Shown here: piece after piece, positions 3,479 to 23,287 of the stretch | How positions within the stretch are numbered: position 1 is the first letter of the stretch | How the letters are laid out: the number at the start of each line of letters is the position of its first letter | NCBI GenBank assembly: GCA_963675915.1 | Contig: OY780959.1 | Coordinates: 960,001 to 992,000 of the forward strand | DNA length: 32,000 nucleotides | Reading direction: 5' to 3' | Source: Coprobacillaceae bacterium | Lineage (GTDB): Bacteria > Bacillota_I > Bacilli_A > Erysipelotrichales > Coprobacillaceae | Position numbers and translations under genes: made by a program | Notes under the pieces: generated by a model | Told to the model about the DNA's origin: nothing | What the model saw: only the letters and a program-made list of their open reading frames with translations | Databases searched by the model: none

Positions 3479-3526
3479 ATAATTCCCTCTTTCCTTATTT
3501 TCCCATAATTTTTAGTACATAAAATA

Positions 3527-3535
3527 ATTATATCA
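3527..3535 (-). promoter_or_regulatory. candidate extended -10 element for the histidinol-phosphatase gene
   Basis: The minus strand reads TGATATAAT (TGn+TATAAT) about 50 nt upstream of ATG 3478. There is no convincing -35. Confidence 0.35.
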
Positions 3536-3623
3536 TAAAGAAAAACAAAAATTAACAAGTTACCTTTTTTTGAAAAAAAATACCCGTAAAATCGTTTACA
3601 TGTTTCGTCCAAGGCTAAATTAT

Positions 3624-3656
3624 AAAAAATAAAAGAAACAGCTAAGCTGTTTCTTG
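3624..3656 (-). terminator. rho-independent terminator of the MFS gene
   Basis: AGAAACAGC-TAA-GCTGTTTCT forms a 9-bp stem. On the minus strand it is followed by TTTTATTTTTT, 10 nt after stop 3667. Confidence 0.8.
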
Positions 3657-3666
3657 GAGTTTCCTG

Positions 3667-4818
3667 TCAGTCTTCCTTGAACCTGAAGGCGAAGATCACT
3701 GAAATCAGGGTCGCAATCATTGAAATAAGATAGATAATTCTGAATCCTTCGGTTCCCGGGAAAGTATCCAGGATTCTTCCGGCCGCCACAATGAAAGCCA
3801 GAGCGGCCACCCCACGGGCAAGCATAGCCGAAATTCCATAGGCACTGTTGACATATTTTTCATCAACGATATCGAAGATGATTCTAACTGCGGTAAGAAC
3901 CATGACAATGATGGTCATCCCCTGGAAGAAAAAGACTATCATAATCAAAAACGGCGATGGCAAAGTTGCATACCAGACAAAGCGGATAACCTGGATAATT
4001 CCGGCAAAAATCATCAGATTGCGGTAGCTGAACTTCTTGAAAATCCGATCCGAGAATAGGATGGTCGGAATTTCCGAGAGGACACTCAAAAACAAAGTTG
4101 TTCCCACAATGGTGGTGCTTCCGCCAAGTTCCTGGATGAACAGCGGGAAGTAAGTGAACTGGGCAATAAAAGAGCCTTGGAAAAGACAAAGAATCCCGAC
4201 AAACATCAGATACTTCTTATTATGGATCAAGGCATTGAAGACTTCCTTGGCCGTAACCTTTTCGTCTTCATGAGCAGTCTTGGGAACCGCATCGATCATC
4301 CCGATAAAGCCGATAATAGTGATTCCAATCGCCCCGGCGAAAATGTAGTAATTTAGAATCGTCGAGATATTGTCATAAATATAACCGGCAAGTTGGGCGG
4401 CGATGGCAAACATAACCGAACCCCAGACTCTGATAGTTCCAAATGAGTATTCGCTTTCCAAAGCCAAGCGGTCCGACAGGGCAACAGTTCCGTTGAAAAA
4501 GCCCTGAGTGAAACCATTCATCAAAAACAGGAAGATGAACGACTTGGTATGGCCGAAAATCAAACCACTGACAATCGCCATTGCCAGACAGACGATTCCG
4601 ACCTTTTTAGGCGAGCGAATCTTGTCGGCGAAAAAACCAGCCAAAGGCTGGAACACCAGCGAGAACAGGGCCGCGGCCGAGGTAATCAAAGAAATCTGGG
4701 TAGCTGAACTTCCTTTACCGGCCAGAACTACCGAAATAATGGAGATGAACATCCCAAACGAAAAATAAAACATTCCATTGGACATGGCATAGTAAAAATA
4801 ACTTCCTCTTTTAAGCAT
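3667..4818 (-). CDS. MFS transporter (12-TM, LacY / nucleoside-H+ symporter-like)
   Basis: The hydrophobic helix pattern runs throughout. The ORF opens at ATG 4845, but ATG 4818 (MLKRGSYFYY...) has a GAGGGAG SD 6 nt upstream. The substrate cannot be inferred. Confidence 0.8.
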   Translation of the reverse strand: MLKRGSYFYYAMSNGMFYFSFGMFISIISVVLAGKGSSATQISLITSAAALFSLVFQPLAGFFADKIRSPKKVGIVCLAMAIVSGLIFGHTKSFIFLFLMNGFTQGFFNGTVALSDRLALESEYSFGTIRVWGSVMFAIAAQLAGYIYDNISTILNYYIFAGAIGITIIGFIGMIDAVPKTAHEDEKVTAKEVFNALIHNKKYLMFVGILCLFQGSFIAQFTYFPLFIQELGGSTTIVGTTLFLSVLSEIPTILFSDRIFKKFSYRNLMIFAGIIQVIRFVWYATLPSPFLIMIVFFFQGMTIIVMVLTAVRIIFDIVDEKYVNSAYGISAMLARGVAALAFIVAAGRILDTFPGTEGFRIIYLISMIATLISVIFAFRFKED

Positions 4819-4953
4819 CGCAATCTCCCTCGTTTCCAAAACCATCCCCGATGATGATTTTTGTGTGTATTAATATTAAATCACACTTCAACTCAAGTAA
4901 TCGGTTATTTTTTGATTTTGAAAAACAAATGACAACATATTGTCTTATATGTC

Positions 4954-4991
4954 AAAAAAGCGTTCTGCCATGAGAATCGGCGGGACGCTTT
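4954..4991 (-). terminator. rho-independent terminator of the NERD gene
   Basis: AAAGCGTTCTGCC / 9-nt loop / GGCGGGACGCTTT forms a 13-bp stem (2 G-T pairs). On the minus strand it runs into TTTTTT. Confidence 0.65.
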
Positions 4992-5066
4992 AAAAATATT
5001 ATGAACCCGGTTAATCCTTAACCTCGGGCTGGAAAATAATTTTTAACCCCCAATCAAAATAGATAA

Positions 5067-5762
5067 TCAACGAAGCGAAGCATTATTGATTTGATTATAA
5101 AGCTCGCTCAGTTCCCCAGAATCAATGTACTCGCGGTCATTGGATTTGATCCAGGCTGCCAGTTCACTGTCACGGAGTACTTTCGATCCGGTTTCGACTT
5201 GCATATTGGCTCCCCGACCGTAAACCACCACCGGCATAAAATAGTGATTGGGCGCGTTGGTGATTCGCTCAAGGTTGTCAATCTGATCATAAGCGACCTT
5301 GATGGGATTGCGCATCCTGGTCTGTTCATGGCGAGACTCGACACTCCAGGAATCGGCATATTCGCTCCCCTGAACGGTTCCGCTTTGATCAAAAGCAACT
5401 ATCACAAAAATACCGGATTTAGAAAAGACCACCCCATCGAGTTGGGAAACTCCATATTTGTCTTCTAGCTTCAAATCGGTAAGAATCCGGTAGTCAGATC
5501 CGGGAAGCTGGTTGAGCCCGCCAAGCAAGGGATGATGATTGCCGATAGTTGTTTGGCTGTAACTGCTTGGTCTTTTGGTCATATTGGCATACTCCCGGGT
5601 TTTGGCCAGACTCTCCTTAATCTTGGTAAAATCACCTGATTTGCGATTGCTAAACAGTTTTAGAATCCGGCCCAGGATAATTACGAAGAAAAAAGCCGAA
5701 ACCAGTTGAAAAAGAATCGGGATTAGAAAAAAGCCCCCGTTGAAAATCGGATTTATGTACAT
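5067..5762 (-). CDS. membrane-anchored NERD (nuclease-related) domain protein
   Basis: AAGGAGG SD 7 nt upstream. An N-terminal TM helix spans aa ~10-33. The segment YRILTDLKLE..QLDGVVFSKSGIFVIVAFDQSGTV..SW..NPIKVAYDQ follows the NERD-domain layout. Confidence 0.7.
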   Translation of the reverse strand: MYINPIFNGGFFLIPILFQLVSAFFFVIILGRILKLFSNRKSGDFTKIKESLAKTREYANMTKRPSSYSQTTIGNHHPLLGGLNQLPGSDYRILTDLKLEDKYGVSQLDGVVFSKSGIFVIVAFDQSGTVQGSEYADSWSVESRHEQTRMRNPIKVAYDQIDNLERITNAPNHYFMPVVVYGRGANMQVETGSKVLRDSELAAWIKSNDREYIDSGELSELYNQINNASLR

Positions 5763-5842
5763 CTTGATTCCTCCTTAATTGCGAAAAGGCAATTTTCGAA
5801 TGTCCGCCAATCAAAAATCACCTAATCGTTATGTTCTATTTG

Positions 5843-6757
5843 TTACCAAAGTTTTTCAGGGTATGCGCCCTGAGCAATCAAATCATTAAGCTGTTCGATT
5901 ACCGAATCCTTATCGGCCTGATAAGTTACACCGAACCATTTATCCCGCGTTTCCAGCATTTTCACATCAGCTGTTTCGTTTTGAATCAACTCGTCGATGA
6001 AAATCGGTAACAGGTATTCTTCAGTAAGTTCATCCTTGTCTTCTTTAGCCAAGAAATCAGTGAAACCCTGATCCAGTTTTGCGATGAAATCAGGATAGCC
6101 ACCCCACATGTTCATTGACACATGGCTGTCCATTTCCACTGCCACATCGGTTCCATTGCCGTTGTGTTCAATCACACCTTGGGAATTCTTCATGATTCCT
6201 TTGGTTTCAATTACTTGTGAAAGCAAATGGTATTCATCCACCACACATACGCCACGGGTAACTGCCCCATTGTCGCTTAAAGTGTTTTTCAAAATGAATC
6301 CGGCCATGCACAGATTGATCTCCTTGTCACTCTCACAACCGTTGGTAAGGTGTTCGTAGATCAATTTGAAGGCAGTTTTACCATAGTAGTCATCGGCATT
6401 GATAATGACAAAAGGTTCCTTGACCACGTCCTTACAACAAAGGACTGCCTGTCCGGTTCCCCATGGTTTTTTTCTTCCCTCAGGAAGAGTGAAACCATCC
6501 GGAAGGTCGTCAAGTTCCTGGAAGACATACTCAACATCGATCACTTCGCTTACCCGGTCCCCGACAGTCTTTCTTACGATTTCTTCAAGATCCTTGCGGA
6601 TGATGAAAACGACTTTGTCGAATCCAGCTTCTTTGGCATCATAGATTGAATATTCCATCAGAATTTCTCCGCTTGGTCCCATTTTCTCCAATTGTTTGAT
6701 ACCTCCGCCATAACGGCTTCCCATACCAGCCGCCATGATGATTAATGTTGCACTCAT
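5843..6757 (-). CDS. sugar-phosphate nucleotidyltransferase family protein
   Basis: The N-terminal IIMAAGMGSRYGGGIKQL is the G-x-G-x-R nucleotide-binding loop of NTP_transferase-fold enzymes. A GAAGGGGAG SD is present. Sugar specificity is not inferable. Confidence 0.75.
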   Translation of the reverse strand: MSATLIIMAAGMGSRYGGGIKQLEKMGPSGEILMEYSIYDAKEAGFDKVVFIIRKDLEEIVRKTVGDRVSEVIDVEYVFQELDDLPDGFTLPEGRKKPWGTGQAVLCCKDVVKEPFVIINADDYYGKTAFKLIYEHLTNGCESDKEINLCMAGFILKNTLSDNGAVTRGVCVVDEYHLLSQVIETKGIMKNSQGVIEHNGNGTDVAVEMDSHVSMNMWGGYPDFIAKLDQGFTDFLAKEDKDELTEEYLLPIFIDELIQNETADVKMLETRDKWFGVTYQADKDSVIEQLNDLIAQGAYPEKLW

Positions 6758-6940
6758 ACTTTACTCCCCTTCTATTTAGATTAACTCCTATGGTATCACA
6801 ATGTGGGGTAAAATACTATCCAAAATTACACTATTGTACAATTTTTCCATCAATATCCTGTAAGTGCCTATTATATCTTAAGATTTACTTAAGAGTTTAT
6901 TAAGAGGTCCTGAAGCAAATTGCTCGACTGAACATCTCCC

Positions 6941-7387
6941 CTAAAGCTCACTTTTATTGATTTTGGCTAGTCCCCGATAGCCCAGAATTCCCACCAAGGC
7001 TCCGGCACTATCGATCAATACGTCAGTGACTCCCGGACCCCGACCGGGGACAAACATCTGATGGACTTCATCCGATATGGCATAAATGATACAAATCAAG
7101 ACTGCTGTTTTAATGCCGCTGATCCCACTACGAGTCAGGGCATTGACAACCAACAAGCCCAGGATCAGATAACTGGAGAAATGGGCGCATTTGCGAATCA
7201 GGTGATCGGTGATAATCCAATCGAAACCCATAGCGAGCTGATCGACGATTTTCACGATTACTTGGGTGAATGAGTTGCTAAGACCCGCTGATTGGGCAGC
7301 CACTTGGGCTGAAAGCTTAAAAATCAGCAGCATCCAAAACAGTACCGCCATCCATGACAGGGCAATAATAATATGGTTTTTCTTCAT
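6941..7387 (-). CDS. VanZ family protein
   Basis: 148 aa with 4 TM helices. RKCAHFSSYLILGLL and DEVHQMFVPGRGPGVTDVLIDSAGALVG are signature VanZ-like motifs. Confidence 0.85.
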   Translation of the reverse strand: MKKNHIIIALSWMAVLFWMLLIFKLSAQVAAQSAGLSNSFTQVIVKIVDQLAMGFDWIITDHLIRKCAHFSSYLILGLLVVNALTRSGISGIKTAVLICIIYAISDEVHQMFVPGRGPGVTDVLIDSAGALVGILGYRGLAKINKSEL

Positions 7388-7479
7388 GTAATATTTTCCT
7401 TTTCGTTGATATTTAAGGTTTGGTCTTCCCGCCAGTTACACTTACAGCGAAGGGAAAACCAAGCGCCGGATTTACGACC

Positions 7480-9447
7480 CTATTTGCCAATCAAATCCTT
7501 CAAGCCTTCGTAGATCATCACCATCGCCAAGGTGTCCAACTCGCAATACCGCAGCAACGCCTGTTCAATCTGGGTCCTTTCAATCGCGCTCATCTGTTCA
7601 AACTGCATCCGGGCATAGGCAATCAAGGCCGCTCCGCCGTTTTGGAGGCGATCGTTATCGACAAGCAGTTCCAGCTCCTCAGGATCGATGTCTTCGAACA
7701 TCGATGGCAGCAGTTGGTAAGGGTCGATCACCTGATCACCGTCGAACTCGACCCAGATTTTATCCTGGTAGTTCAAACTTTTAATCCCCCCGACGGCACC
7801 ATAGATTGGCTGGGCGTATTTGGTTTGAAGATAAGCGGAGCTGTTTAGAATCGCCGGCAGGACATATTTGATTGAATTGGAACCCTTGGTGAACGGGTCA
7901 TAATAATACTTTTTGATCACAACGCAGAGATCGACCATATTGCGTTCACCTTCCCAGCTTCCGTTACTTGAACCGCTCGATTTGGTGATTGTCTTGATAA
8001 AGGCGCTCAGTTCCTCCCGGTCTGGGACCGTCTTATCCCTTTGAAGCTGGGAGTAGATGAAATTAAGATAAGTGTTTTCATGCGCGGCATACCTGAAGAT
8101 TGTCCCCTGATCGGTTTCGAGTTGTTTTTTCAACTCCCGGACAAATTCATAGTTGGGGAAAAATCCCGGCGTGGCATTGAGATATTCGCCCCTGTGTTCG
8201 ATGGTGCCGTCTTGATAGATGACATGATGGGAAAACTGAAAGGCAATCGCCTCATAAGGGTGGCGCCCCTTGGTGAAGGGTATCGCCACTGCTGAAGTTT
8301 CAAAATCAATGAAATGAAGCGGGAATTTCCAATGGTCCATTTCTGCTTTGATTCGCTCCTTGTTGAGCCAGGGACTTTTGTCATTGGTTTTCACTTTTTC
8401 AATCTGGAGCCATTGACGCTGGCTGGTAGTCAGACTTGAACCATCAAAAGCTTCAACCCCGAGGTCCTCAGCCTCAATATCCTTGAGTTTGATCAGGCCC
8501 TCCTGGAAAAACCTGTCTTTATAACGGAAGTTCCACAGTTCCAGGACTGTCTGATCATTGAAGTCTTCATCGCTCCAGCCCAGCTGCTCTTTAAAACACT
8601 CATGATAGCCGCTAAGATGGTTCGCATCAATTTGATCAAGGCCACATCGAAATTCGCAATCGCCGCATTTTTGGCCCAGTCCGGTGGCAATTTTGGTATT
8701 GGTTTTGAGCTGGGTGGCCAGATAACTGATCCGGCCGTGATAATCAAGATTTTCCTGATTGATTCGATATTTGGTGTCATAGATAATCCGGCACGCCTCT
8801 TCAACGTTAAGCTTGATTAAAATCGGTGTGGCCAGATCTTCATCATTCACCAAATCCAAGATGGTCACCTGAGTGCGCCCCCGGTCATCTTTGGTCAATC
8901 TGAATTTCTGGTTGAGTCCGGATACCGGACAACGGGCCGATTTGTCGACCACCATCAAGTTGGCGCTGACATAGCTGTCGGGATAGGCCTGTATGACCAC
9001 ATGTTTCTGGAATGCGATATCCTCGAGATATTCCTTCCACGCGCTTTTGAGGCCACCTTTTTTGGTATAGAAGCTGTCACGATTGGGATTGAAGGACTTG
9101 GCCTTGACCTCGATCAATTCCAGCTGATTGCCGTCCTTTTTAAGGATATCAACCCGGACCAAAAGATTGTCGAATCGAATTGCCGCTTCATAGATGATGA
9201 CTTGATCCTGTTCTAGCAATTTGGTGGTCTTACTAACGGCCGCTTCGATATCAAGGGTTTCAATCATCACTCCCCCGGGGATATAACAGGTAGCCAGCGC
9301 CCCCACTTGAAAGCCACCTTCAGCCAATGACTGCAAAAACGAGTCCTCGATATTCTTGTTGACATATTCGCGGTTGGTCGCATAGTACAGTTTGGTCGGA
9401 CAGGTCAGCGCCTGTTTGAAAATAGATTTGGTCAGATATCTGGTCAT
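7480..9447 (-). CDS. DUF2779 domain protein (N-terminal PD-(D/E)xK nuclease-like with Cys cluster, C-terminal DnaQ/RNase-H-like)
   Basis: GGGGGA SD. The N-terminus LTKSIFKQALTCPTKLYY is typical of DUF2779. VDIL...ELIEVKA gives D-x(n)-E-x-K. CGDCEFRC (8644-8667) plus C16 forms the Cys cluster. HFIDFETS and ELDTLAM resemble exonuclease acidic motifs. Confidence 0.75.
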   Translation of the reverse strand: MTRYLTKSIFKQALTCPTKLYYATNREYVNKNIEDSFLQSLAEGGFQVGALATCYIPGGVMIETLDIEAAVSKTTKLLEQDQVIIYEAAIRFDNLLVRVDILKKDGNQLELIEVKAKSFNPNRDSFYTKKGGLKSAWKEYLEDIAFQKHVVIQAYPDSYVSANLMVVDKSARCPVSGLNQKFRLTKDDRGRTQVTILDLVNDEDLATPILIKLNVEEACRIIYDTKYRINQENLDYHGRISYLATQLKTNTKIATGLGQKCGDCEFRCGLDQIDANHLSGYHECFKEQLGWSDEDFNDQTVLELWNFRYKDRFFQEGLIKLKDIEAEDLGVEAFDGSSLTTSQRQWLQIEKVKTNDKSPWLNKERIKAEMDHWKFPLHFIDFETSAVAIPFTKGRHPYEAIAFQFSHHVIYQDGTIEHRGEYLNATPGFFPNYEFVRELKKQLETDQGTIFRYAAHENTYLNFIYSQLQRDKTVPDREELSAFIKTITKSSGSSNGSWEGERNMVDLCVVIKKYYYDPFTKGSNSIKYVLPAILNSSAYLQTKYAQPIYGAVGGIKSLNYQDKIWVEFDGDQVIDPYQLLPSMFEDIDPEELELLVDNDRLQNGGAALIAYARMQFEQMSAIERTQIEQALLRYCELDTLAMVMIYEGLKDLIGK

Positions 9448-10734: not shown

Positions 10735-12139
10735 TTAGTTTGTAAGAACCTGGTACTCGAGCTTGGTCACGGTGGCGGTTTGGTTACCGGTCACATACAG
10801 ACCGGTAACCACTCCGGTAAAGGCTGAGAAACTGGATTCACTGGATAGGTGTTTGGTATAACTCCAATCGAGCTGAGTCCACTCTTGATTGCAGTCTTTC
10901 AACCAAAAATGATATTTATCCTTGGAACCGTTGATTTTAAGTTCCAGCGGCTCTTCTGGATGAATCAATTCCCATTTTCGTTCGGCCACGATATCTCCGA
11001 CCTTTTTTCGAAGGACCAATACTTTTTTGTCCCCTCGAGCAGTCACCACAAACTCGAAATGATGTTGATTATCGAGCACCAAAGCCAATCCGGCTTCTTG
11101 TCTGGCATTTTCCGGCTCGAATTCAAAAGATGTGGTCATTTCAAAATCATAGGAGCTTTGTCTTATCCCCAGGAACACCGGATTATGAAGATCATCCAGG
11201 GTATATTGATTGCCGGTAACTTTCAGCGAATCTTCAAAAGACAGGTACTCACCAATATTGCTGTGCAAGGTTGTCATTTCAACAGGCAGTTTAGTGGCAT
11301 TTGGTCCAATCGTAATCGGATTCTTTCTTGATTGTTTGACTTTAACATCAATTTCAACCTCTTCAGGCATGTAACCCAACTTACTGTGCAACCAGCCAGG
11401 CATTGCCAGCTTCGTCTTCAATCAAATCAGCATGACCGACTGACTGAATCAAAGCAGTTCCCAAATCGCGGTTGGACAAAATCGGATTGAAAGGACAAGC
11501 TTCAAACGGTCCCCAGAGCGATTCACTTCGCGCCAAGGTAACCATATGACCTTCCCTAGTCCCGCCTTCAGCCAGCATCAGATAATACCATTGTCCTCGT
11601 TTGAAAATATGGGGCGCCTCAATATCCCGACCACCACAGCCATGACTGATAATCTGAGGGCTACTTAGCAGTTTCCCGCTCTCCAATTCGATTTCAACCT
11701 GTTTGATGATTGAGATCCCGGTACTGTAATCGGCATATTGGACATAGGTCCTACCGGCTTCAAAATAGAAAGACGGATCAATCCCCGGAATATCGATAAA
11801 TACCGGCTCCGACCACTCCTCACGGGGATCGTTAGCTGTGACATAAAATGTTTCAATCTTGCTGCCGACATTGGTGGTAATCATATAGAATTTATCATCG
11901 TGATGACGGATAGTCGGCGCATAGATCCCTTTTGAACAACCACAGCCATCGAGATCCAACTGTGATTTTCTAGTCAGGCAATGCCCGATTGGTTCCCAAT
12001 TGAACAGATAACTACTGTAAAAAATCGGGGCTCCGGGAAAATATTCAAAGCTTGAAGTTACCAGATAGTAATCATTCCCTTTTTTACAGATTGACGGATC
12101 AGGATAGTAATCCGGGATAATTGGATTTTGATATTTCAT
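10735..12139 (-). pseudogene. glycoside hydrolase family 43 (beta-xylosidase / alpha-L-arabinofuranosidase-like), frameshifted
   Basis: The N-terminal ORF (11381..12139) has NPIIPDYYPDPSI, GIDPSFYF and IEAPHIF (the GH43 catalytic Asp/Asp/Glu contexts). It ends at GHADLIEDEAGNAWLVAQ*. The C-terminal beta-sandwich part continues in another frame (10735..11421), and the two frames overlap at 11381-11421. AAGAGGAG SD before ATG 12139. Confidence 0.75.
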
Positions 12140-12162
12140 ATTACTCCTCTTTGCTAATAATT

Positions 12163-12696
12163 TTATTTGTTTTCTTCAAGCATTGAATCGTCAAAACCGA
12201 AGAAATATGTCAGTATCGTAGCTCCAAAGAACCCTAAGAATGCCGAAATCAAAACACCCATACCGCCCTTCATCAACGCCAGTGTTGGAAGAGTCAAGAC
12301 ACATACTGTCATCAGCCCCGGCCATTGAGCTCCGGCAATTCCAGTAATAATTCCCCCGATTCCCGAAACCGCACAAGCGATGTAGAATGGTTTTTTATAT
12401 TTGATGTTTACTGCATAGATGGCTGGCTCGGTTACCCCGCCAATAAGAGCTGAAATACAAGATGACATTGAAACTTCTTTCAACTTTGTGTTTTTAGTTT
12501 TCAAAAATAATCCCAGTACCGCTCCAGCCATGGCAAAGTTGGTCGCGATGGTAACAGGTAACAAAGTATCATAACCATATTGGCTCAAGTTATTGAACAC
12601 AACTGGAACCATCGATGACCAAAAGGTAATCAAAATCACCGGACTGGAACCGCACAATCCAGACATTACCATCCATAACGCTCCGATTATAGTCAA
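12163..12696 (-). pseudogene. PTS EIIC (beta-glucoside/sucrose class) C-terminal remnant, 5'-truncated
   Basis: Only ~175 codons remain. FWSSMVPVVFNNLSQYGYDTLLP and GGVTEPAIYAVNIKYKKPF align by eye to the last third of BglF/ScrA-type EIIC. There is no ATG, SD, EIIB or first ~2/3 of EIIC; the frame is closed by a stop at 12712-12714. Confidence 0.75.
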
Positions 12697-13521
12697 AAGA
12701 CATTCTCGTTTTCAAGAATTTCCGATGCATTATCACGATTGGATTGAGTTGATATACGTTTATTCGGGGACTTCCACCCAAGTGATCAATAACCGCAAGT
12801 ATGAACTGCCAGAGGGCTGCACCCTGGTGCTTGATTGTGATACCATGCATACAATTGAACCGCTTGAGGAAATGATATTCTCATCAATATCTTCATCAAG
12901 AAAGAATACCTCAATTCGCAGTTTTTTAGCCGCCTGTCAGCGCAGAGTATCCTGACTAATTTCTTCTTGAATTCGATCATCTCCGACACGTCTCACAACG
13001 ACTTTATCGTCTTCAAATCCCAACATAGTCAACGGCTGCCGTTGTTTATGAAAGAATTCCTCTGTGAATGGTATGACCCGTCGTATGCTTCAACCGAAAT
13101 CCTTAATAGTCTTTTCACCCTGATAATTTCAGAGCTGATGAATATCTATCGTAGTGACCTGGAAAAAAGTTCCAATCCGGCCAAGAAAAATTCAGTCATC
13201 CCGATCTTGAGCTATATTGAAGAGAATTACCAGACCTGCACTTTACGTTCCACGGCCGCTTATTTCAACATGAATGCCAACTATCTTTCAAGCGTCTTGA
13301 AAAAACATACCGGTTCGTCTTTCAAAATCCTGCTTCAGGAAAAGAGAATCAGTTATGCTACCCAATTGCTTAAAAACACTGATTTGACCATCACGGAAAT
13401 CGCCAATCTGAGTGGATATGAAAATGTCAGTTTCTTCTATAAGAAGTTTCAGGAAATATGCGGCTGTCTGCCAGGAAGCTATCGCGATCAACACAAAGCT
13501 TCAAACAATAATTTCATTTAA
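12695..13521 (+). pseudogene. AraC-family transcriptional regulator, 5'-truncated and frameshifted
   Basis: The cupin part KRHSRFQEFPMHYHDWIELIYVYSG... runs to ~12870. The natural continuation NDILINIFIKKEYLNSQFFSRLSAQSILTNFFLNSI... and the C-terminal HTH_AraC domain (ITEIANLSGYENVSFFYKKF) lie in another frame. The shift sits at the A-run 12870-12872. Confidence 0.75.
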
Positions 13522-13540: not shown

Positions 13541-13580
13541 AAAAAAAGCTGAACCTCCTCAAAGGATTTTCAGCTTTTTT
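13541..13580. terminator. bidirectional terminator shared by the AraC pseudogene and kptA
   Basis: A7-GCTGAA / 15-nt loop / TTCAGC-T6. It overlaps the last codons and stop (13570-13572) of kptA. Confidence 0.75.
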
Positions 13581-14133
13581 CGGTTTCAATCTTATTTGAT
13601 TTGACTTGGCGCAGATAAGCAACTGGCACAAACTCGATCAGCCAGATCTTGTTTTTCGAAAGGTAGAACTGATAGCCGTCTTCTACCATTCTGGCACAGT
13701 CAATTTGATAGACACACGGTTTGCCGTGGCGCTTACCGACCTGGATGGCTGCCTCGATTGAGGTGGACAGGTGGACATAGAGGCGGCCGTTGCCTTTTAA
13801 CCCCTCCCGCTCGATGTCAGCCACTGATTTGACTGCGGTGCCATGATCAAGAATCTTCGGGGGGATGGCGGCTTTTAGTTCGACATCGACATCCAGCGAG
13901 TGGCCCTGATTGGCCCTGATTTTGGTATGGTCGTCATTGAAACTGTAGCGGTTCTTGGGGTCGCTGGCGACGATTTCTTCCAGGATAGTCAAGTCGATGG
14001 GGTATTGGCTATTGATTCCCTTGAGCAAATCGCCAACCTCGGCCCAGCCGTGCTGGTCAAGAGTGATCCCGATCACTTCGGGTTGATGGCGAAGAATCAG
14101 GGACAGGAATTTGCTTACCCGCTTCAAATTCAT
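13570..14133 (-). CDS. kptA: RNA 2'-phosphotransferase, Tpt1/KptA family
   Basis: SKFLSLILRHQPEVIGITLDQHGWAEV, IRANQGHS, HGT and GRLYVHLS align with E. coli KptA and retain the R-H-R-R catalytic contexts. ATG 14131-14133 overlaps the upstream stop (ATGA), and the AAGGAG SD lies inside the upstream gene. Confidence 0.9.
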   Translation of the reverse strand: MNLKRVSKFLSLILRHQPEVIGITLDQHGWAEVGDLLKGINSQYPIDLTILEEIVASDPKNRYSFNDDHTKIRANQGHSLDVDVELKAAIPPKILDHGTAVKSVADIEREGLKGNGRLYVHLSTSIEAAIQVGKRHGKPCVYQIDCARMVEDGYQFYLSKNKIWLIEFVPVAYLRQVKSNKIETEKS

Positions 14134-16787
14134 CTTAACTCCTTGCCCGAATCGAGATTCCGACTGGAATGGCAGATGAAATAGATGACCTGATAGTTCG
14201 TGGCAATCTTTTTAAGCAACTCCAAGGCCCTTTCCAGGCGGACATTGTCAAGATTGACAAAAGGATCGTCAAGAATCAAGACCGGTTTGGTCACATCTTT
14301 GAAAACAGCATCGACCAAGGCCATCCGCAAACAGACCTGGATCAGATCTTTCATCCCGGTACTCAACTCGTCACTGCCATGGAGTTCACCTCCTGCTTCC
14401 ATTTTGACATTGAGACGGTTGTCGACTTGATAGTTCTCCGGAGTTAGGGCATTGAGTTCGTCGAGATACTGCTTGAATGATTTTGAAACATCTGCCGTAT
14501 AGCGGGATTGGAGACTCTCCTGGGCTTGGCGCATCGCTGCAAGAGTTATTTCCAGCAAGTGTTTCTCCTTGGCCAGGTCCTTTTTCTTTTCAGCCAGATT
14601 GACAACCAATGATTCAAGATCCTCAGTCTCATCAGCCTTGAGGGCCAGCGTGACGATATCTTTTTGATAGCCGGCAATGCGCCTCATGATCTCTTCTTGG
14701 GCTTTAGTCAGCTTTTGCCGGGTTGAATCAATCTCCCGAGTGATTTTTTCGAGATCAACCTCATCGATTTCCAGCCGTTTCAAAGCGGCAATATCATTAT
14801 TCGATTCGAAGGAGCTTTTTTTGAATTGGAGCTGGCGCAACTGGGTTTGGCTGGTTTGGTAACTGGCCAGATCGAGATTCAGCTGATTGAACAGTTGGTC
14901 GAACGGCTGGTCGCTTTTGCCATAATAGCCCGTAAAAATTGCTTCCAATTCCACTTGAAGCCCTTCTACCTGGGTTCGAGCCTGAAGATAATCGCTTTGG
15001 CATTTTTGCAGGGTCCGGTATTCGGTGACGGCATTACGCAAGGTCTTGACCAACCGGCCATAATCGCTGTCTTCAAGAAGTTTGAGATATTGGGCCAGAA
15101 AGCCGCTGATTTGCCGCTCCAATTTTTCAATAACCGCTTTGGTTTCGAGATATTGACTGCTTTTACGGGCGATTTCGTCTTTGAGTTCCAGATAATCTTC
15201 GTATTCCCCCTTGGCGCTGGTTAAAGCAATCGGGATATTGTCATCATCCAAGCCGATCGAATTTAAAAAGGCCAGGTAGCGCTCTTCCAGCGTTCTTCTT
15301 TCGCTTTCGAGATTGGCTTTCTCCATAGCGAGATGTTCATTGGAAGTCTGTGGCAAATCAACCGGCAACTTGGTAGCCGTGCGGCGCTCTTTGATCATCA
15401 TGAAGGCAGCCAGAAACAGGATTGCCAATCCGGCTCCAAACAAGACCGTCCCCAAAGCCTGGCTGGTACTTAAAGCGATAAAGCCGCTGACAATCACCAG
15501 GAGCCCGACCACCAACAAGGCAATTTGGGGAGACCTGATTTTTCTGGGTTGATAGAGTTTGTTTTTTTCCATATCGTAGTTGATCTGGACAATCCGGTGG
15601 TCGATCCGGGTCACCCGGTCGAAATCCCGAATATAACCTTCAATCACGCCGCTGTCAATGGTCAGATTGCCATAGCGCTTTTCCAATCTTTCTTGGAGAT
15701 CCAACTCTTCAGGCTGAGAGATGTAGGAATCGAGATCCCTTTTTAGCTTGGCCAGTTCCAAGGCATCTCCTTCGCTCTGGTCCAGTTCGAAACTGCTCGG
15801 AACTCTTTGGGAAAATACCTGGGCCAGTTTTTGGTATCGTTGGCTGTCGTCTTCACTAAGTTGGCTTTGATTGGCAAGAGCCTCGGCTTGGTAATAATCC
15901 CGGACTTTGGTCGAGATTGATTGGAGTTCTTCTTTTATCGTCGCCAGATCCCTGGTGTCGCCAGCGAAAAGCCGGTTAAGCCGGGTATATCTTTCCTTGA
16001 CGATATTGTATTCGCCAAGAAGCTCCTGATAGCGGGTCTTCCGGTCAACCAGATTCAAGGAACCCTTCCGGTCTTCGAGTTGGGCCAACTGCTTTCGGTT
16101 ATTTTGGAGACTGGTTTTTTCAAGTTCAATCTGCTCTTCAAGCTCTTCAATTTGAGCCTGGGCGATGCGAGCGTGTTGGAGCTGGGTTCTTACTTCATCG
16201 CGGCGAGCCTCCAATTGCTGGATTCTTCCTTTATTGCCCCGGGAGGAACTGATATTTTTAAGAGCGGCTTCGATTGTGGCCAGCGCCTGACTGGCACTAT
16301 CGAAATCAGCTTCACTAGTTGGAAGATCCCCGAGTTTGCTGGAAATCAGATCAGTGAAGAGACTTTCCCCATCAAGAGTGATAAAGGCAGTCTTGTCATA
16401 GGAATCCCGGTCCAGCTCCCAGATTTGACCCCCGATATTTTCACCAAAATCAGCGCAGGGCTGATTTAGTTTGGCATTGTAAAGTTTGAAACTGTCTTCT
16501 TTTTCGCGGCGCCCGAAAAAGCGTTCAATCCGATAGTGGCGCTCTTGGTATTCAAAGACCAGATTACCGCCGAATTTGCCGCCATTCCAAGGATAGTAGC
16601 GTTTGCGGTCGGTCATTTTCCGGCCTCGGGAATACTCGAGACCATAGAACATCGCTTTGATAAAAGCCGCCAGGGTGGTTTTGCCCCAGCCATTGTCCTC
16701 TTCAATGATATTCAGCCCCTCATCAAAGCGGTATTCGAATTCATTGAATTTACCGAAATTTTCAATATAACAGCTGATCAGTTTCAT
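14130..16787 (-). CDS. SbcC/Rad50-like SMC-type ATPase with central two-helix membrane hairpin (YhaN/SbcE-like)
   Basis: Walker A is EEDNGWGKTT (aa 31-38). The C-terminal head has signature ELSTGMKD, Walker B VLILDDPF and an H-loop in FICHSS. About 600 aa of heptad-rich charged sequence is interrupted by hydrophobic aa ~421-465. ATG 16785-16787 overlaps the upstream TAA by 1 nt. AGAGGTGGG SD. Confidence 0.8.
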   Translation of the reverse strand: MKLISCYIENFGKFNEFEYRFDEGLNIIEEDNGWGKTTLAAFIKAMFYGLEYSRGRKMTDRKRYYPWNGGKFGGNLVFEYQERHYRIERFFGRREKEDSFKLYNAKLNQPCADFGENIGGQIWELDRDSYDKTAFITLDGESLFTDLISSKLGDLPTSEADFDSASQALATIEAALKNISSSRGNKGRIQQLEARRDEVRTQLQHARIAQAQIEELEEQIELEKTSLQNNRKQLAQLEDRKGSLNLVDRKTRYQELLGEYNIVKERYTRLNRLFAGDTRDLATIKEELQSISTKVRDYYQAEALANQSQLSEDDSQRYQKLAQVFSQRVPSSFELDQSEGDALELAKLKRDLDSYISQPEELDLQERLEKRYGNLTIDSGVIEGYIRDFDRVTRIDHRIVQINYDMEKNKLYQPRKIRSPQIALLVVGLLVIVSGFIALSTSQALGTVLFGAGLAILFLAAFMMIKERRTATKLPVDLPQTSNEHLAMEKANLESERRTLEERYLAFLNSIGLDDDNIPIALTSAKGEYEDYLELKDEIARKSSQYLETKAVIEKLERQISGFLAQYLKLLEDSDYGRLVKTLRNAVTEYRTLQKCQSDYLQARTQVEGLQVELEAIFTGYYGKSDQPFDQLFNQLNLDLASYQTSQTQLRQLQFKKSSFESNNDIAALKRLEIDEVDLEKITREIDSTRQKLTKAQEEIMRRIAGYQKDIVTLALKADETEDLESLVVNLAEKKKDLAKEKHLLEITLAAMRQAQESLQSRYTADVSKSFKQYLDELNALTPENYQVDNRLNVKMEAGGELHGSDELSTGMKDLIQVCLRMALVDAVFKDVTKPVLILDDPFVNLDNVRLERALELLKKIATNYQVIYFICHSSRNLDSGKELR

Positions 16788-17869
16788 TATCCCACCTCTT
16801 TTCCCATGATGGCATTGATTCCCATCATGATGATCCGGTTTTTATCCTCATCGTTTAAATCCAGCGCTGCAACGGTTCTGATGAATTCCCCTTTGAAGGA
16901 AATATCCTGGGCATATTTGGTGTAATCGATTTTCACTTCAGTCAAATCGGCCAATTTGGCAAAATAGAAGCGATTGGCGATTTTATGTTCGAGATAATCC
17001 CAGTCAAGTTCGGTCTCTTCATCAACAGTTCCGGTGATGATAACCTTGACGATATCCTCAGCCAAGATGCCTTCAAGTTGGCGTTCCACTAGTTTGGCAA
17101 TCTCCCTGGCGTCAAGCGCTTTGGAGATATCGACAGTCACTTCATGGAAGGTCCGCTTGGCTAAAGAGACGAATTCGCGGGTACTGCTATTACCTTGGAT
17201 ATCCAGGAGGTAGAAGCCTTTGGTGCCACATTCATCAAAGCCCCGGCCTTCCAGACAACCCGGATAGCACCAGACGCCCCGGTAATCAAGTTTATCACAG
17301 CGGGCTTCATGGATATGCCCCAGGGCCAGGTAATCGATATCCTTGTTTTTGAGTTGTTCAAGATTAATGGTTTCAGCCTTGTTGTCGGCCTGGTAGCTGA
17401 CAATTTGGCCATGGAGCATCACAATATTGAAGTCATTTTCATCAAGGAGCAACTCCTGATAAAAATCACCGGACTGGTTATTGGAAAACTCCCGTCCGGC
17501 AATCACCACGTTGCCATAGCGATAAGCGCTCCAGTTGGTGGTAAACAGCTTCAGGTTGCTTGGTCTGGGATCAAGCTTCTTGAAGTAGTAATCCCGATCA
17601 TGATTGCCCTGAAGGTAGATGAAGTCAATCTGGTCGTTTTCGCTGATAGTATCCATCACCCGGTTTTTAATGGTTTTTTGTTGACTTTGCGGGGTGTCGA
17701 ACATGTCACCGGAAATAATGATCACTTCGACTTGATGGTCACTGGCATAGCTGACCATTCGTTCAAAAGTAGCCAGGATTTCATAACGGCGCCCCTTGGC
17801 CTGTTCGGGCGAAAAGTTGGTCTCCATTTTCGAATCCAGATGCAAATCGGCACAGTGAATTATTTTCAT
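16787..17869 (-). CDS. SbcD/Mre11-like metallophosphoesterase (YhaO/SbcF-like DNA repair exonuclease)
   Basis: MKIIHCADLHLDS, IISGDMFD, LQGNHD, MLHG and LGHIHE are the calcineurin-like phosphoesterase motifs I-V. AAGGGAG SD 8 nt upstream. Confidence 0.85.
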   Translation of the reverse strand: MKIIHCADLHLDSKMETNFSPEQAKGRRYEILATFERMVSYASDHQVEVIIISGDMFDTPQSQQKTIKNRVMDTISENDQIDFIYLQGNHDRDYYFKKLDPRPSNLKLFTTNWSAYRYGNVVIAGREFSNNQSGDFYQELLLDENDFNIVMLHGQIVSYQADNKAETINLEQLKNKDIDYLALGHIHEARCDKLDYRGVWCYPGCLEGRGFDECGTKGFYLLDIQGNSSTREFVSLAKRTFHEVTVDISKALDAREIAKLVERQLEGILAEDIVKVIITGTVDEETELDWDYLEHKIANRFYFAKLADLTEVKIDYTKYAQDISFKGEFIRTVAALDLNDEDKNRIIMMGINAIMGKEVG

Positions 17870-17936
17870 ATTGTCATCTCCCTTACTAGATAATGGTCTC
17901 TATTTTGTCTAAGTTCAATCTACTTTCCATTATCTA

Positions 17937-17966
17937 ATTATAACATTGACCCTGCCCCTTTTCTAA
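17937..17966 (-). promoter_or_regulatory. candidate sigma-A promoter of the sbcD-like/sbcC-like/kptA operon
   Basis: The minus strand reads TTAGAA - 18 nt - TATAAT with an extended TGT (TGTTATAAT at 17937-17945), ~65 nt upstream of ATG 17869. Confidence 0.5.
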
Positions 17967-18055
17967 CAATTATTGCATTTGAATTTGATAATGAGGTTTT
18001 AAACCCGTTTAAGTGGTTGGTTCGTTCTTAAATAAGCCTTGTTTTTAGTTCAATC

Positions 18056-22408: not shown

Positions 22409-23287
22409 CTAAACCAGGTACTTGCCTTCAAGGACATCCTGCAGATAAGCTCCGTATTGGTTTTTCTTGTACAATTCGATTGCCGCCTCCATTTTGGCCT
22501 GGTCGATCCAGCCACTTAGGTAGGCAATTTCTTCAAGACAGGCAATCTTATGGTTTTGATTATTTTCAACCGTACAGACAAAATTGGTCGCTTCCACCAG
22601 CGAGTCATGAGTTCCGGTATCGAGCCAGGTAAAGCCTTTGCCCAGCAGTTCGACATCAAGTTGGCCTTTTTCAAGATAGATCTTGTTTAAATCGGTTATT
22701 TCCAGTTCCCCACGCGGTGATGGGACAATCTGCTTGGCATAATCGACCACCTTATTGTCATAGAAATACAAACCGGTTACCGCATAGTTTGATTTGGGAT
22801 GTTCCGGTTTCTCTTCGATGGAAACCGCCTCCTTTGCCTGATTGAATTCGACCACCCCGAAACGATGCGGGTCATCGACATAATAGCCAAAAACCGTGGC
22901 CCGATCCGCTTTGGCTGCTGCCGCCTTGAGCCGCTTGGTCAAACCGTGACCATTGAAGATATTGTCGCCTAGGATCATTGCACAAGAATCACCGGCAATG
23001 AAATCCTCACCTAGAATGAAGGCCTGAGCCAAGCCATCAGGACTGGGCTGCACTTTGTATGAAAGTTCAATTCCAAACTGGCTGCCATCGCCAAGAAGAT
23101 CCTGGAACCGGGGCGTGTCTTCCGGGGTTGAAATAATCAAAATTTCCCGGATGCCGGCATCCATCAGGATGCTAAGTGGATAATAAATCATCGGTTTGTC
23201 ATAAACCGGCAATAACTGCTTGCTTGTAACTTGGGTCAGGGGATACAGCCTTGTTCCGCTGCCTCCAGCCAATACGATTCCCTTCAT
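22409..23287 (-). CDS. rfbA: glucose-1-phosphate thymidylyltransferase
   Basis: [44 protein letters not shown] and LGDNIF form the canonical RmlA sequence pattern. GGAGGA SD. Confidence 0.9.

Follow-up and report, generated by a model that had tools for sequence, protein, structure and literature searches.

Bacterial Tpt1/KptA enzymes have no established physiological substrate, and much could be learned from a conserved genetic link between one of them and a machine for DNA-end processing. The question of such a link is raised by a locus of a Coprobacillaceae bacterium, contained in a 32,000-nt stretch of contig OY780959.1 (positions 960,001 to 992,000; the whole stretch is here called the window). 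Three adjacent genes on its minus strand encode an SbcD/Mre11-like nuclease, an SMC/Rad50-like ATPase and KptA. A first reading, based on the bare sequence and referred to as the sequence-only reading, had described them as a hard-wired functional trio. The distribution, sequence and layout of the three genes were therefore followed up. We consider it likely that the nuclease-ATPase pair is the conserved functional unit, and that kptA is an operon passenger, placed there by an accident of local gene order.

Distribution of the pair and of kptA

The gene following the ATPase was scored wherever at least 600 bp of sequence lay beyond the stop codon of the ATPase; among the matches listed, 86 loci qualified, and they fall into 32 clusters at an ATPase identity of 70% or more. 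Only in two of them, L001 and L168, is the ATPase gene followed by kptA. The 84 other loci, corresponding to 30 ATPase lineages defined at the same identity level, all keep the pair, and kptA is found in none. Among the loci examined, the trio is thus confined to three close relatives, the window itself, L168 and L001. The latter is a 2.57-Mb sister genome, in which the trio has kept its synteny (Usp, MFS, trio, AraC, PTS, GH43); identities to the window proteins are 83% for the nuclease, 74% for the ATPase and 74% for KptA. L168 is a contig of 926 bp from a closer relative than L001 (KptA 89% identical), where the C-terminus of the ATPase is encoded directly 5' of kptA.

Nuclease identity drops to 57-63% in the outgroups. 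The closest by this measure (61-63%, L170 to L177) contain the pair and no kptA, and in L002, L003/L004, L005 and L166/L167 the pair is again present, with kptA not after the ATPase gene. Remnants of kptA were looked for 3' of the ATPase in the outgroups, and none was found. The named sources nearest to the window proteins are Tissierella, Lachnotalea and Erysipelotrichaceae. Two observations on individual outgroup loci may be added. In L005 (6919-8004) the nuclease gene is spread over three open reading frames (ORFs) of 142, 89 and 136 aa next to an intact ATPase gene, as the result of either pseudogene formation or sequencing frameshifts. In L173/L174 (1-5929; the source of the nuclease is named as Tissierella sp.) the pair comes right after type I restriction-modification genes (HsdM/S/R), a GIY-YIG protein and a uracil-DNA glycosylase.

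The association of the first two genes is, on the other hand, very stable. The nuclease gene lies directly 5' of the ATPase gene in 75 of the 80 metagenome loci among the matches listed, a redundant set (32 clusters), and 4 of the 5 others have little or no upstream sequence; the same pairing was found in every ortholog that was looked up. What follows the ATPase gene varies from locus to locus: an NhaC antiporter, a Bmp lipoprotein, MatE, a subtilase, a GH42 beta-galactosidase, a pantothenate kinase, an HD-CE/HATPase protein, a BlaI-like regulator, AzlC or ABM. The ATPase subfamily of the window has no conserved third slot. KptA had been proposed to fill the position held in Bacillus subtilis by YhaM; this could not be upheld, since the position is taken by unrelated genes and, unlike in B. 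subtilis, a yhaM-like gene is found 3' of the ATPase in none of the loci examined of this subfamily. In one lineage (L107, 7632-10406), a 924-aa protein with HD-CE and HATPase_c_3 domains begins 3 nt past the ATPase stop codon, and is the sole downstream neighbour with the flavour of a conflict system.

The same question was asked starting from KptA. Of at least 590 matches in species-representative genomes, the survey covered the 80 with the highest similarity to the window protein (identities of 54-64%), mostly from Clostridia and Erysipelotrichaceae. A tblastn search detected a relative of the nuclease or of the ATPase within 6 kb of kptA in none of the 80 loci, and searching the same loci with profile hidden Markov models of the two families gave best E-values of 0.011 and 0.014, with no relative among them. 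The 68 genes found upstream of kptA represent 67 Pfam families, the commonest being GNAT acetyltransferases (4 cases) and Nudix (2 cases), while PARG, ThsA-Macro, ADP-ribosylglycohydrolase, RtcB and TIR occur as singleton neighbours. The upstream gene is on the same strand in 59 of the 68 cases; in 36 it is on the same strand and within 40 nt, and in 17 it overlaps kptA. The KptA next nearest to the clade (P0004, 61% identical) overlaps by 1 nt its upstream gene, which encodes the C-terminal part of an unrelated protein. An overlapping junction is thus the normal state of kptA next to any neighbour, and does not point specifically to a functional coupling.

A natural control is provided by a genome in which both units are found apart. 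In Lachnospira eligens ATCC 27750 the pair is located at 485-489 kb of the 627-kb second replicon, annotated as "metallophosphoesterase" and "AAA family ATPase" and followed by nhaC, and kptA is located at 602 kb, about 115 kb away. The kptA array of this species (L181, NC_012780.1, 598-607 kb) includes genes for a GNAT protein, an arsenate-reductase family protein, YaiI/YqxD, a flavodoxin, an O-acetyl-ADP-ribose deacetylase (macro) and a NUDIX protein.

Taken from both sides, with no instance of the trio in the 30 other ATPase lineages (84 loci) or in the 80 loci nearest by KptA similarity, the distribution does not bear out a hard-wired trio: kptA stands beside the pair essentially only locally, an outcome that the sequence-only reading had itself named as speaking against it.

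Identity of the three proteins

Gene 1 (16787-17869, minus strand) encodes a metallophosphoesterase of 360 aa. It matches Pfam Metallophos with an E-value of 2.5e-17 over profile positions 1-190 of 191, and all the metal-binding motifs of the phosphoesterases (DxH, GD, GNHD, H, GHxH) are present, in the form of CADLHLD, SGDMFD, QGNHD, MLHG and LGHIH. Its PDB relatives are SbcD and Mre11. The top NCBIfam matches are also Mre11/SbcD models, with scores under the equivalog cut-offs (68 bits for a cut-off of 500, and 56 bits for a cut-off of 78); judged from these scores, the protein belongs to a distinct subfamily, and is not a canonical SbcD or Mre11.

Gene 2 (14130-16787, minus strand) encodes the ATPase, 885 aa long, which matches Pfam AAA_23, SMC_N and SbcC_Walker_B. 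The window protein has no match to PF13514, though some other members of the family do. Invariant alignment columns include the Walker A (G35-K36-T38), the signature (S809/G811) and the Walker B/D-loop (D840-D841-P842-F843), and a family profile built from 24 sequences retrieves Rad50 heads in PDB. At the centre of each of the 24 aligned ATPases there is a hydrophobic segment, about 45-50 residues long, and none of them has a CxxC at the apex. In the window protein it corresponds to a hairpin of two transmembrane-like helices at the apex of the coiled coil (residues ~416-467; 15387-15542, minus strand). The AlphaFold2 model (mean predicted local distance difference test score of 82.9) consists of a Rad50-like head and long helices, with central helices at residues 420-439 and 443-470, and low-confidence linkers on either side. 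The hydrophobic segment, taken by the sequence-only reading as a membrane anchor, is really present; by homology, and from the work on B. subtilis SbcE/SbcF, such an apex may insert into the membrane and tether the complex to it, or associate the complex with it.

The closest known counterparts of the two genes are SbcF and SbcE (YhaO and YhaN) of B. subtilis, as already suggested. SbcE is an SMC-like protein, nearest to SbcC, with a unique hydrophobic-rich central domain and no CxxC; it is encoded downstream of the SbcD-like yhaO, contributes to double-strand break repair and transformation, and gathers at the pole of competent cells (PMC2811018). The window has the same gene order, the SbcD-like nuclease being encoded immediately 5' of the SMC-like ATPase, and the ATPase combines a Rad50/SbcC-type head (with Walker A, signature and Walker B) and long helical arms with a hydrophobic central domain devoid of a CxxC zinc hook. 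This likeness in gene order, head and hookless centre is to the published description of the B. subtilis pair. The window ATPase, with 885 aa, is shorter than B. subtilis YhaN, which is 963 aa long. The presence of yhaM as third gene and the control by a Cheo box are regarded as typical of Bacillus, rather than strictly defining for the SbcE/SbcF type.

The comparison may be extended to SbcCD/Mre11-Rad50 (E. coli 6S6V, T. maritima 3QG5, M. jannaschii Rad50 3AUX), to which the nuclease and the ABC-type ATPase head are homologous by sequence, and with which the locus shares the pairing of the genes. Unlike those systems, the window proteins stay far short of the equivalog thresholds that NCBIfam sets for SbcD, Mre11 and Rad50, and the apex of the ATPase carries a hydrophobic hairpin in place of a zinc hook. 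The SbcF/SbcE-like pair with such an apex is documented as a self-contained two-gene module, widely conserved in Bacillota.

Gene 3 (13570-14133, minus strand) encodes a Tpt1/KptA RNA 2'-phosphotransferase of 187 aa. It matches PF01885 with an E-value of 9e-44 (150 bits, cut-off 26) over residues 4-167, and the solved Tpt1 of PDB 7KW8 with an E-value of 1.1e-47 over residues 3-175; the score against NCBIfam NF002014 is 224 bits, slightly under the equivalog cut-off of 239. The Arg-His-Arg-Arg tetrad, as defined in PMC12678800, is formed by R15, H16, R73 and R117, which are invariant columns in an alignment of 17 sequences and align to the solved Tpt1 chains. Like 7KW8 and the Clostridium thermocellum structures 6E3A and 6EDE, the protein thus matches over its full length with the tetrad kept, and it is 54-64% identical to stand-alone KptA proteins of other Bacillota. 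It differs from known Tpt1/KptA in a short clade-specific C-terminal tail, and its gene in being the third cistron of a nuclease/ATPase operon. The GC content at third codon positions of kptA, 0.64, is at the top of the range of the window genes (0.47-0.64), and its codon fit is typical and host-like; neither composition nor codon usage gives any sign of a recent import of the gene. By these measures, KptA is in sequence an unremarkable protein of the housekeeping type.

What KptA does in bacteria may be approached through its biochemistry and its neighbours. Tpt1/KptA ADP-ribosylates DNA and RNA ends carrying a 5'-phosphate in vitro, and has no established role in bacteria (PMC12678800). The family has been associated with neighbourhoods for RNA repair and ADP-ribose processing (PMC9503650). 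Similarly, the kptA of the relatives analysed here is sometimes beside genes for macro-domain, Nudix, PARG, ARH or RtcB proteins; unlike in those neighbourhoods, such ADP-ribose-processing or RNA-ligase partners are absent from the window.

The mechanism that we favour may be outlined on these grounds. A two-gene DNA-end-processing module of the SbcF/SbcE (YhaO/YhaN) type would combine an Mre11/SbcD-like nuclease with an SMC/Rad50-like ATPase, in which a hydrophobic hairpin replaces the zinc hook, in a complex resembling Mre11/Rad50. By homology, and from what is described for B. subtilis SbcE/SbcF, the ATPase dimer would bind DNA ends in an ATP-dependent manner, for presentation to the subunits with phosphoesterase activity. 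An ordinary and catalytically intact kptA would have been placed directly behind the ATPase gene in the ancestor shared by the window, L168 and L001, to be co-transcribed since then from the promoter of the module and, probably, translationally coupled. KptA would keep its usual NAD+-dependent work on 2'- or 5'-phosphorylated nucleic-acid ends (PMC12678800, PMC9503650), apart from the nuclease-ATPase complex, to which it presumably has no physical or mechanistic link.

Operon structure and its persistence in the clade

The three ORFs, located on a contig of 2.63 Mb, were found exactly as first described, together with their catalytic motifs, overlapping junctions and flanking signals. The nuclease and ATPase genes share a 1-nt stop/start overlap, TAATG (16789-16785), and the ATPase and kptA genes a 4-nt overlap, ATGA (14133-14130). 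The Shine-Dalgarno sequence of kptA, AAGGAG, is read at 14146-14141 (minus strand), within the last codons of the ATPase gene and 5 nt before the ATG at 14133; a similar sequence, AAGGGAG (17878-17884, minus strand), precedes the start codon of the nuclease. Upstream, a predicted promoter (17937-17965, minus strand) is formed by a -35-like TAGAAA, a 17-nt spacer and the extended -10 TGTTATAAT (17945-17937), with 10 of 12 positions matching plus the TG extension; it is the second-best match of this kind in the region, and the promoter block is kept in the sister genome L001. Downstream of kptA, an intrinsic terminator, consisting of a hairpin between runs of A and U (~13582-13540, minus strand), has a folding energy of -22.6 kcal/mol (z = -4.0), and none of 200 shuffled sequences is equally stable. 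The terminator, convergent with an AraC-like gene, probably works in both directions, and has counterparts 3' of kptA in both L001 and L168. A separate terminator-like hairpin (18079-18060) ends the MFS gene upstream of the trio. From this layout, the trio is probably a real operon, co-transcribed and translationally coupled in its clade.

The yhaONM operon of B. subtilis is SOS-regulated. A scan for LexA sites (Cheo box CGAACN4GTTCG, up to 2 mismatches) returned 7 matches against 10.3 expected, and none between 17870 and 18100; as the matches do not exceed expectation and the window promoter, unlike that of B. subtilis, has no such site, there is no evidence for SOS control. A different block, GGGTTTAAAAC..CATTA, is conserved between the two genomes at a distance of about 50-70 nt 5' of the operon -35 (~17995-18015 in the window, ~8775-8800 in L001); it contains no Cheo box and may be a candidate site for a regulator.

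Some features of the clade weigh against a mere passenger role of kptA. Synonymous divergence (dS) between the window and L001 is 0.8-1.2, near saturation, so that the arrangement has been kept across about one synonymous substitution per site, and the ratios of non-synonymous to synonymous divergence (dN/dS) of the three genes are similar to each other (0.13, 0.15 and 0.16), denoting purifying selection on all of them; the ratios of the flanking genes are lower, 0.03-0.06. The junction between the ATPase and kptA genes is different in each genome, yet always within 14 nt: the genes of the window overlap by ATGA, those of L001 by TGATG (or are 14 nt apart, if the second ATG is used), and in L168 a TAG stop is followed by 2 nt. 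A junction remodelled and kept short is compatible with selection for co-expression. Finally, since the KptA survey took the best 80 of at least 590 matches, a recurrent link in more distant KptA lineages is possible. Purifying selection and the conservation of junction, promoter and terminator indicate that the operon is stable and kptA functional within the clade, which is compatible with a mechanistic link and is no demonstration of it.

These features could point to a clade-specific recruitment, with KptA partnering the SbcE/SbcF-like complex and either ADP-ribosylating, and so capping, 5'-phosphorylated DNA or RNA ends that the complex generates or binds, or removing 2'-phosphates at RNA-DNA junctions before resection. 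The in vitro activity on 5'-phosphate ends mentioned above (PMC12678800) would suit this role, as would a tight operon held in three genomes. Recruitment is nevertheless unlikely: the association does not recur beyond the clade on either side of the survey, kptA is routinely packed closely together with genes unrelated to it, L. eligens carries both units without linkage, and KptA shows no specialization, with all invariant residues kept and no added interaction domain. The more specific proposal, that in this clade KptA is the working partner of a membrane-tethered SbcE/SbcF-type complex, using NAD+ to cap, uncap or clean the phosphorylated ends bound by it, is to be held as quite improbable. 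Were recruitment true, the locus would provide the first physiological context for a bacterial KptA, and the clade is a concrete test case for a connection between KptA and DNA repair.

Literature searches on KptA with SbcC or SbcE/SbcF found no published description of the trio, in agreement with what had been stated. The arrangement is undescribed, but its parts are ordinary members of known families, in a lineage-specific gene order. With the link confined to one narrow clade, and kptA in tight arrays with unrelated genes elsewhere, the locus gives little general insight into the function of KptA. It also illustrates that an overlapping stop/start junction, taken alone, is weak evidence of functional coupling.

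Alternatively, kptA could be transcribed separately, with no co-expression with the pair, from a promoter of its own located within the ATPase gene near its 3' end. The sole candidate, a weak match at 9 of 12 promoter positions (TTGACG-17-GACAAT, 14272-14244), is found about 110 nt upstream of kptA. It overlies, however, the codons of the invariant Walker B/D-loop LDDPFVNLD, and is judged coincidental, because the coding of this motif explains it. No terminator was found between the ATPase and kptA genes, which overlap, and the junction does not exceed 14 nt in any of the three genomes. Separate transcription is accordingly regarded as very unlikely.

Genomic surroundings of the operon

A last proposal, that the SMC-like ATPase and the nuclease act as sensor and control of an NAD+-consuming KptA effector in anti-phage defence, is hardly credible. 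Defence systems often use effectors that consume NAD+ (PMC9503650), and the ATPase gives weak partial matches to SMC-like PADLOC models (mad3, 1e-11; LmuB, 6e-10; AriA, JetC and PtuA), but these are generic for SMC/ABC heads, KptA, of housekeeping-type sequence, has no match in PADLOC-DB 2.0, and the nuclease reaches an E-value of 0.0011 only. Moreover, the pair forms a chromosomal module that is widely conserved in varied housekeeping contexts, and only one ATPase relative (L178) was found among 2.9 million viral contigs. Neither the PADLOC models nor the genomic context thus support the defence system that had been envisaged. The window is chromosomal, and the operon is surrounded by genes for rhamnose and cell-wall polysaccharide, LCP, glycosyltransferases, MFS, Usp and a thioesterase, with no defence island or mobile element.

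The possibility that the pair is phage-borne was rejected, L178 being its sole relative on a viral contig. In this contig (IMGVR_UViG_3300045988_027971, 32 kb) an ORF of 361 aa overlaps an ATPase ORF of 1085 aa (3919-8258, about 0.6 kb from the end); the pair may belong to the host flank of a prophage.

Among the other genes of the window, the one for RmlA (glucose-1-phosphate thymidylyltransferase, 22409-23287) is 98.6% identical to its L001 counterpart (3491-4369), with a dS of 0.24, whereas its neighbours range between 0.7 and 1.2. The low value may reflect a recent event of exchange or gene conversion, or else codons under very strong constraint.

Adjoining the trio on its downstream side (10735-13521), three genes are split or truncated with respect to L001. 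The gene for the AraC-type regulator is split in two (12593-12955 and 12967-13521; the intact L001 protein is 339 aa), that for the PTS EIIC is truncated to 177 aa (12163-12696; 460 aa in L001), and that for GH43 is also split (11381-12139 and 10735-11421; 497 aa in L001). Probable causes are the decay of a cluster for sugar utilisation or frameshifts in the assembly. A NERD-domain protein (5067-5762, 231 aa) and a DUF2779 protein (7480-9447, 655 aa) are encoded at a distance of a few kb from the trio.

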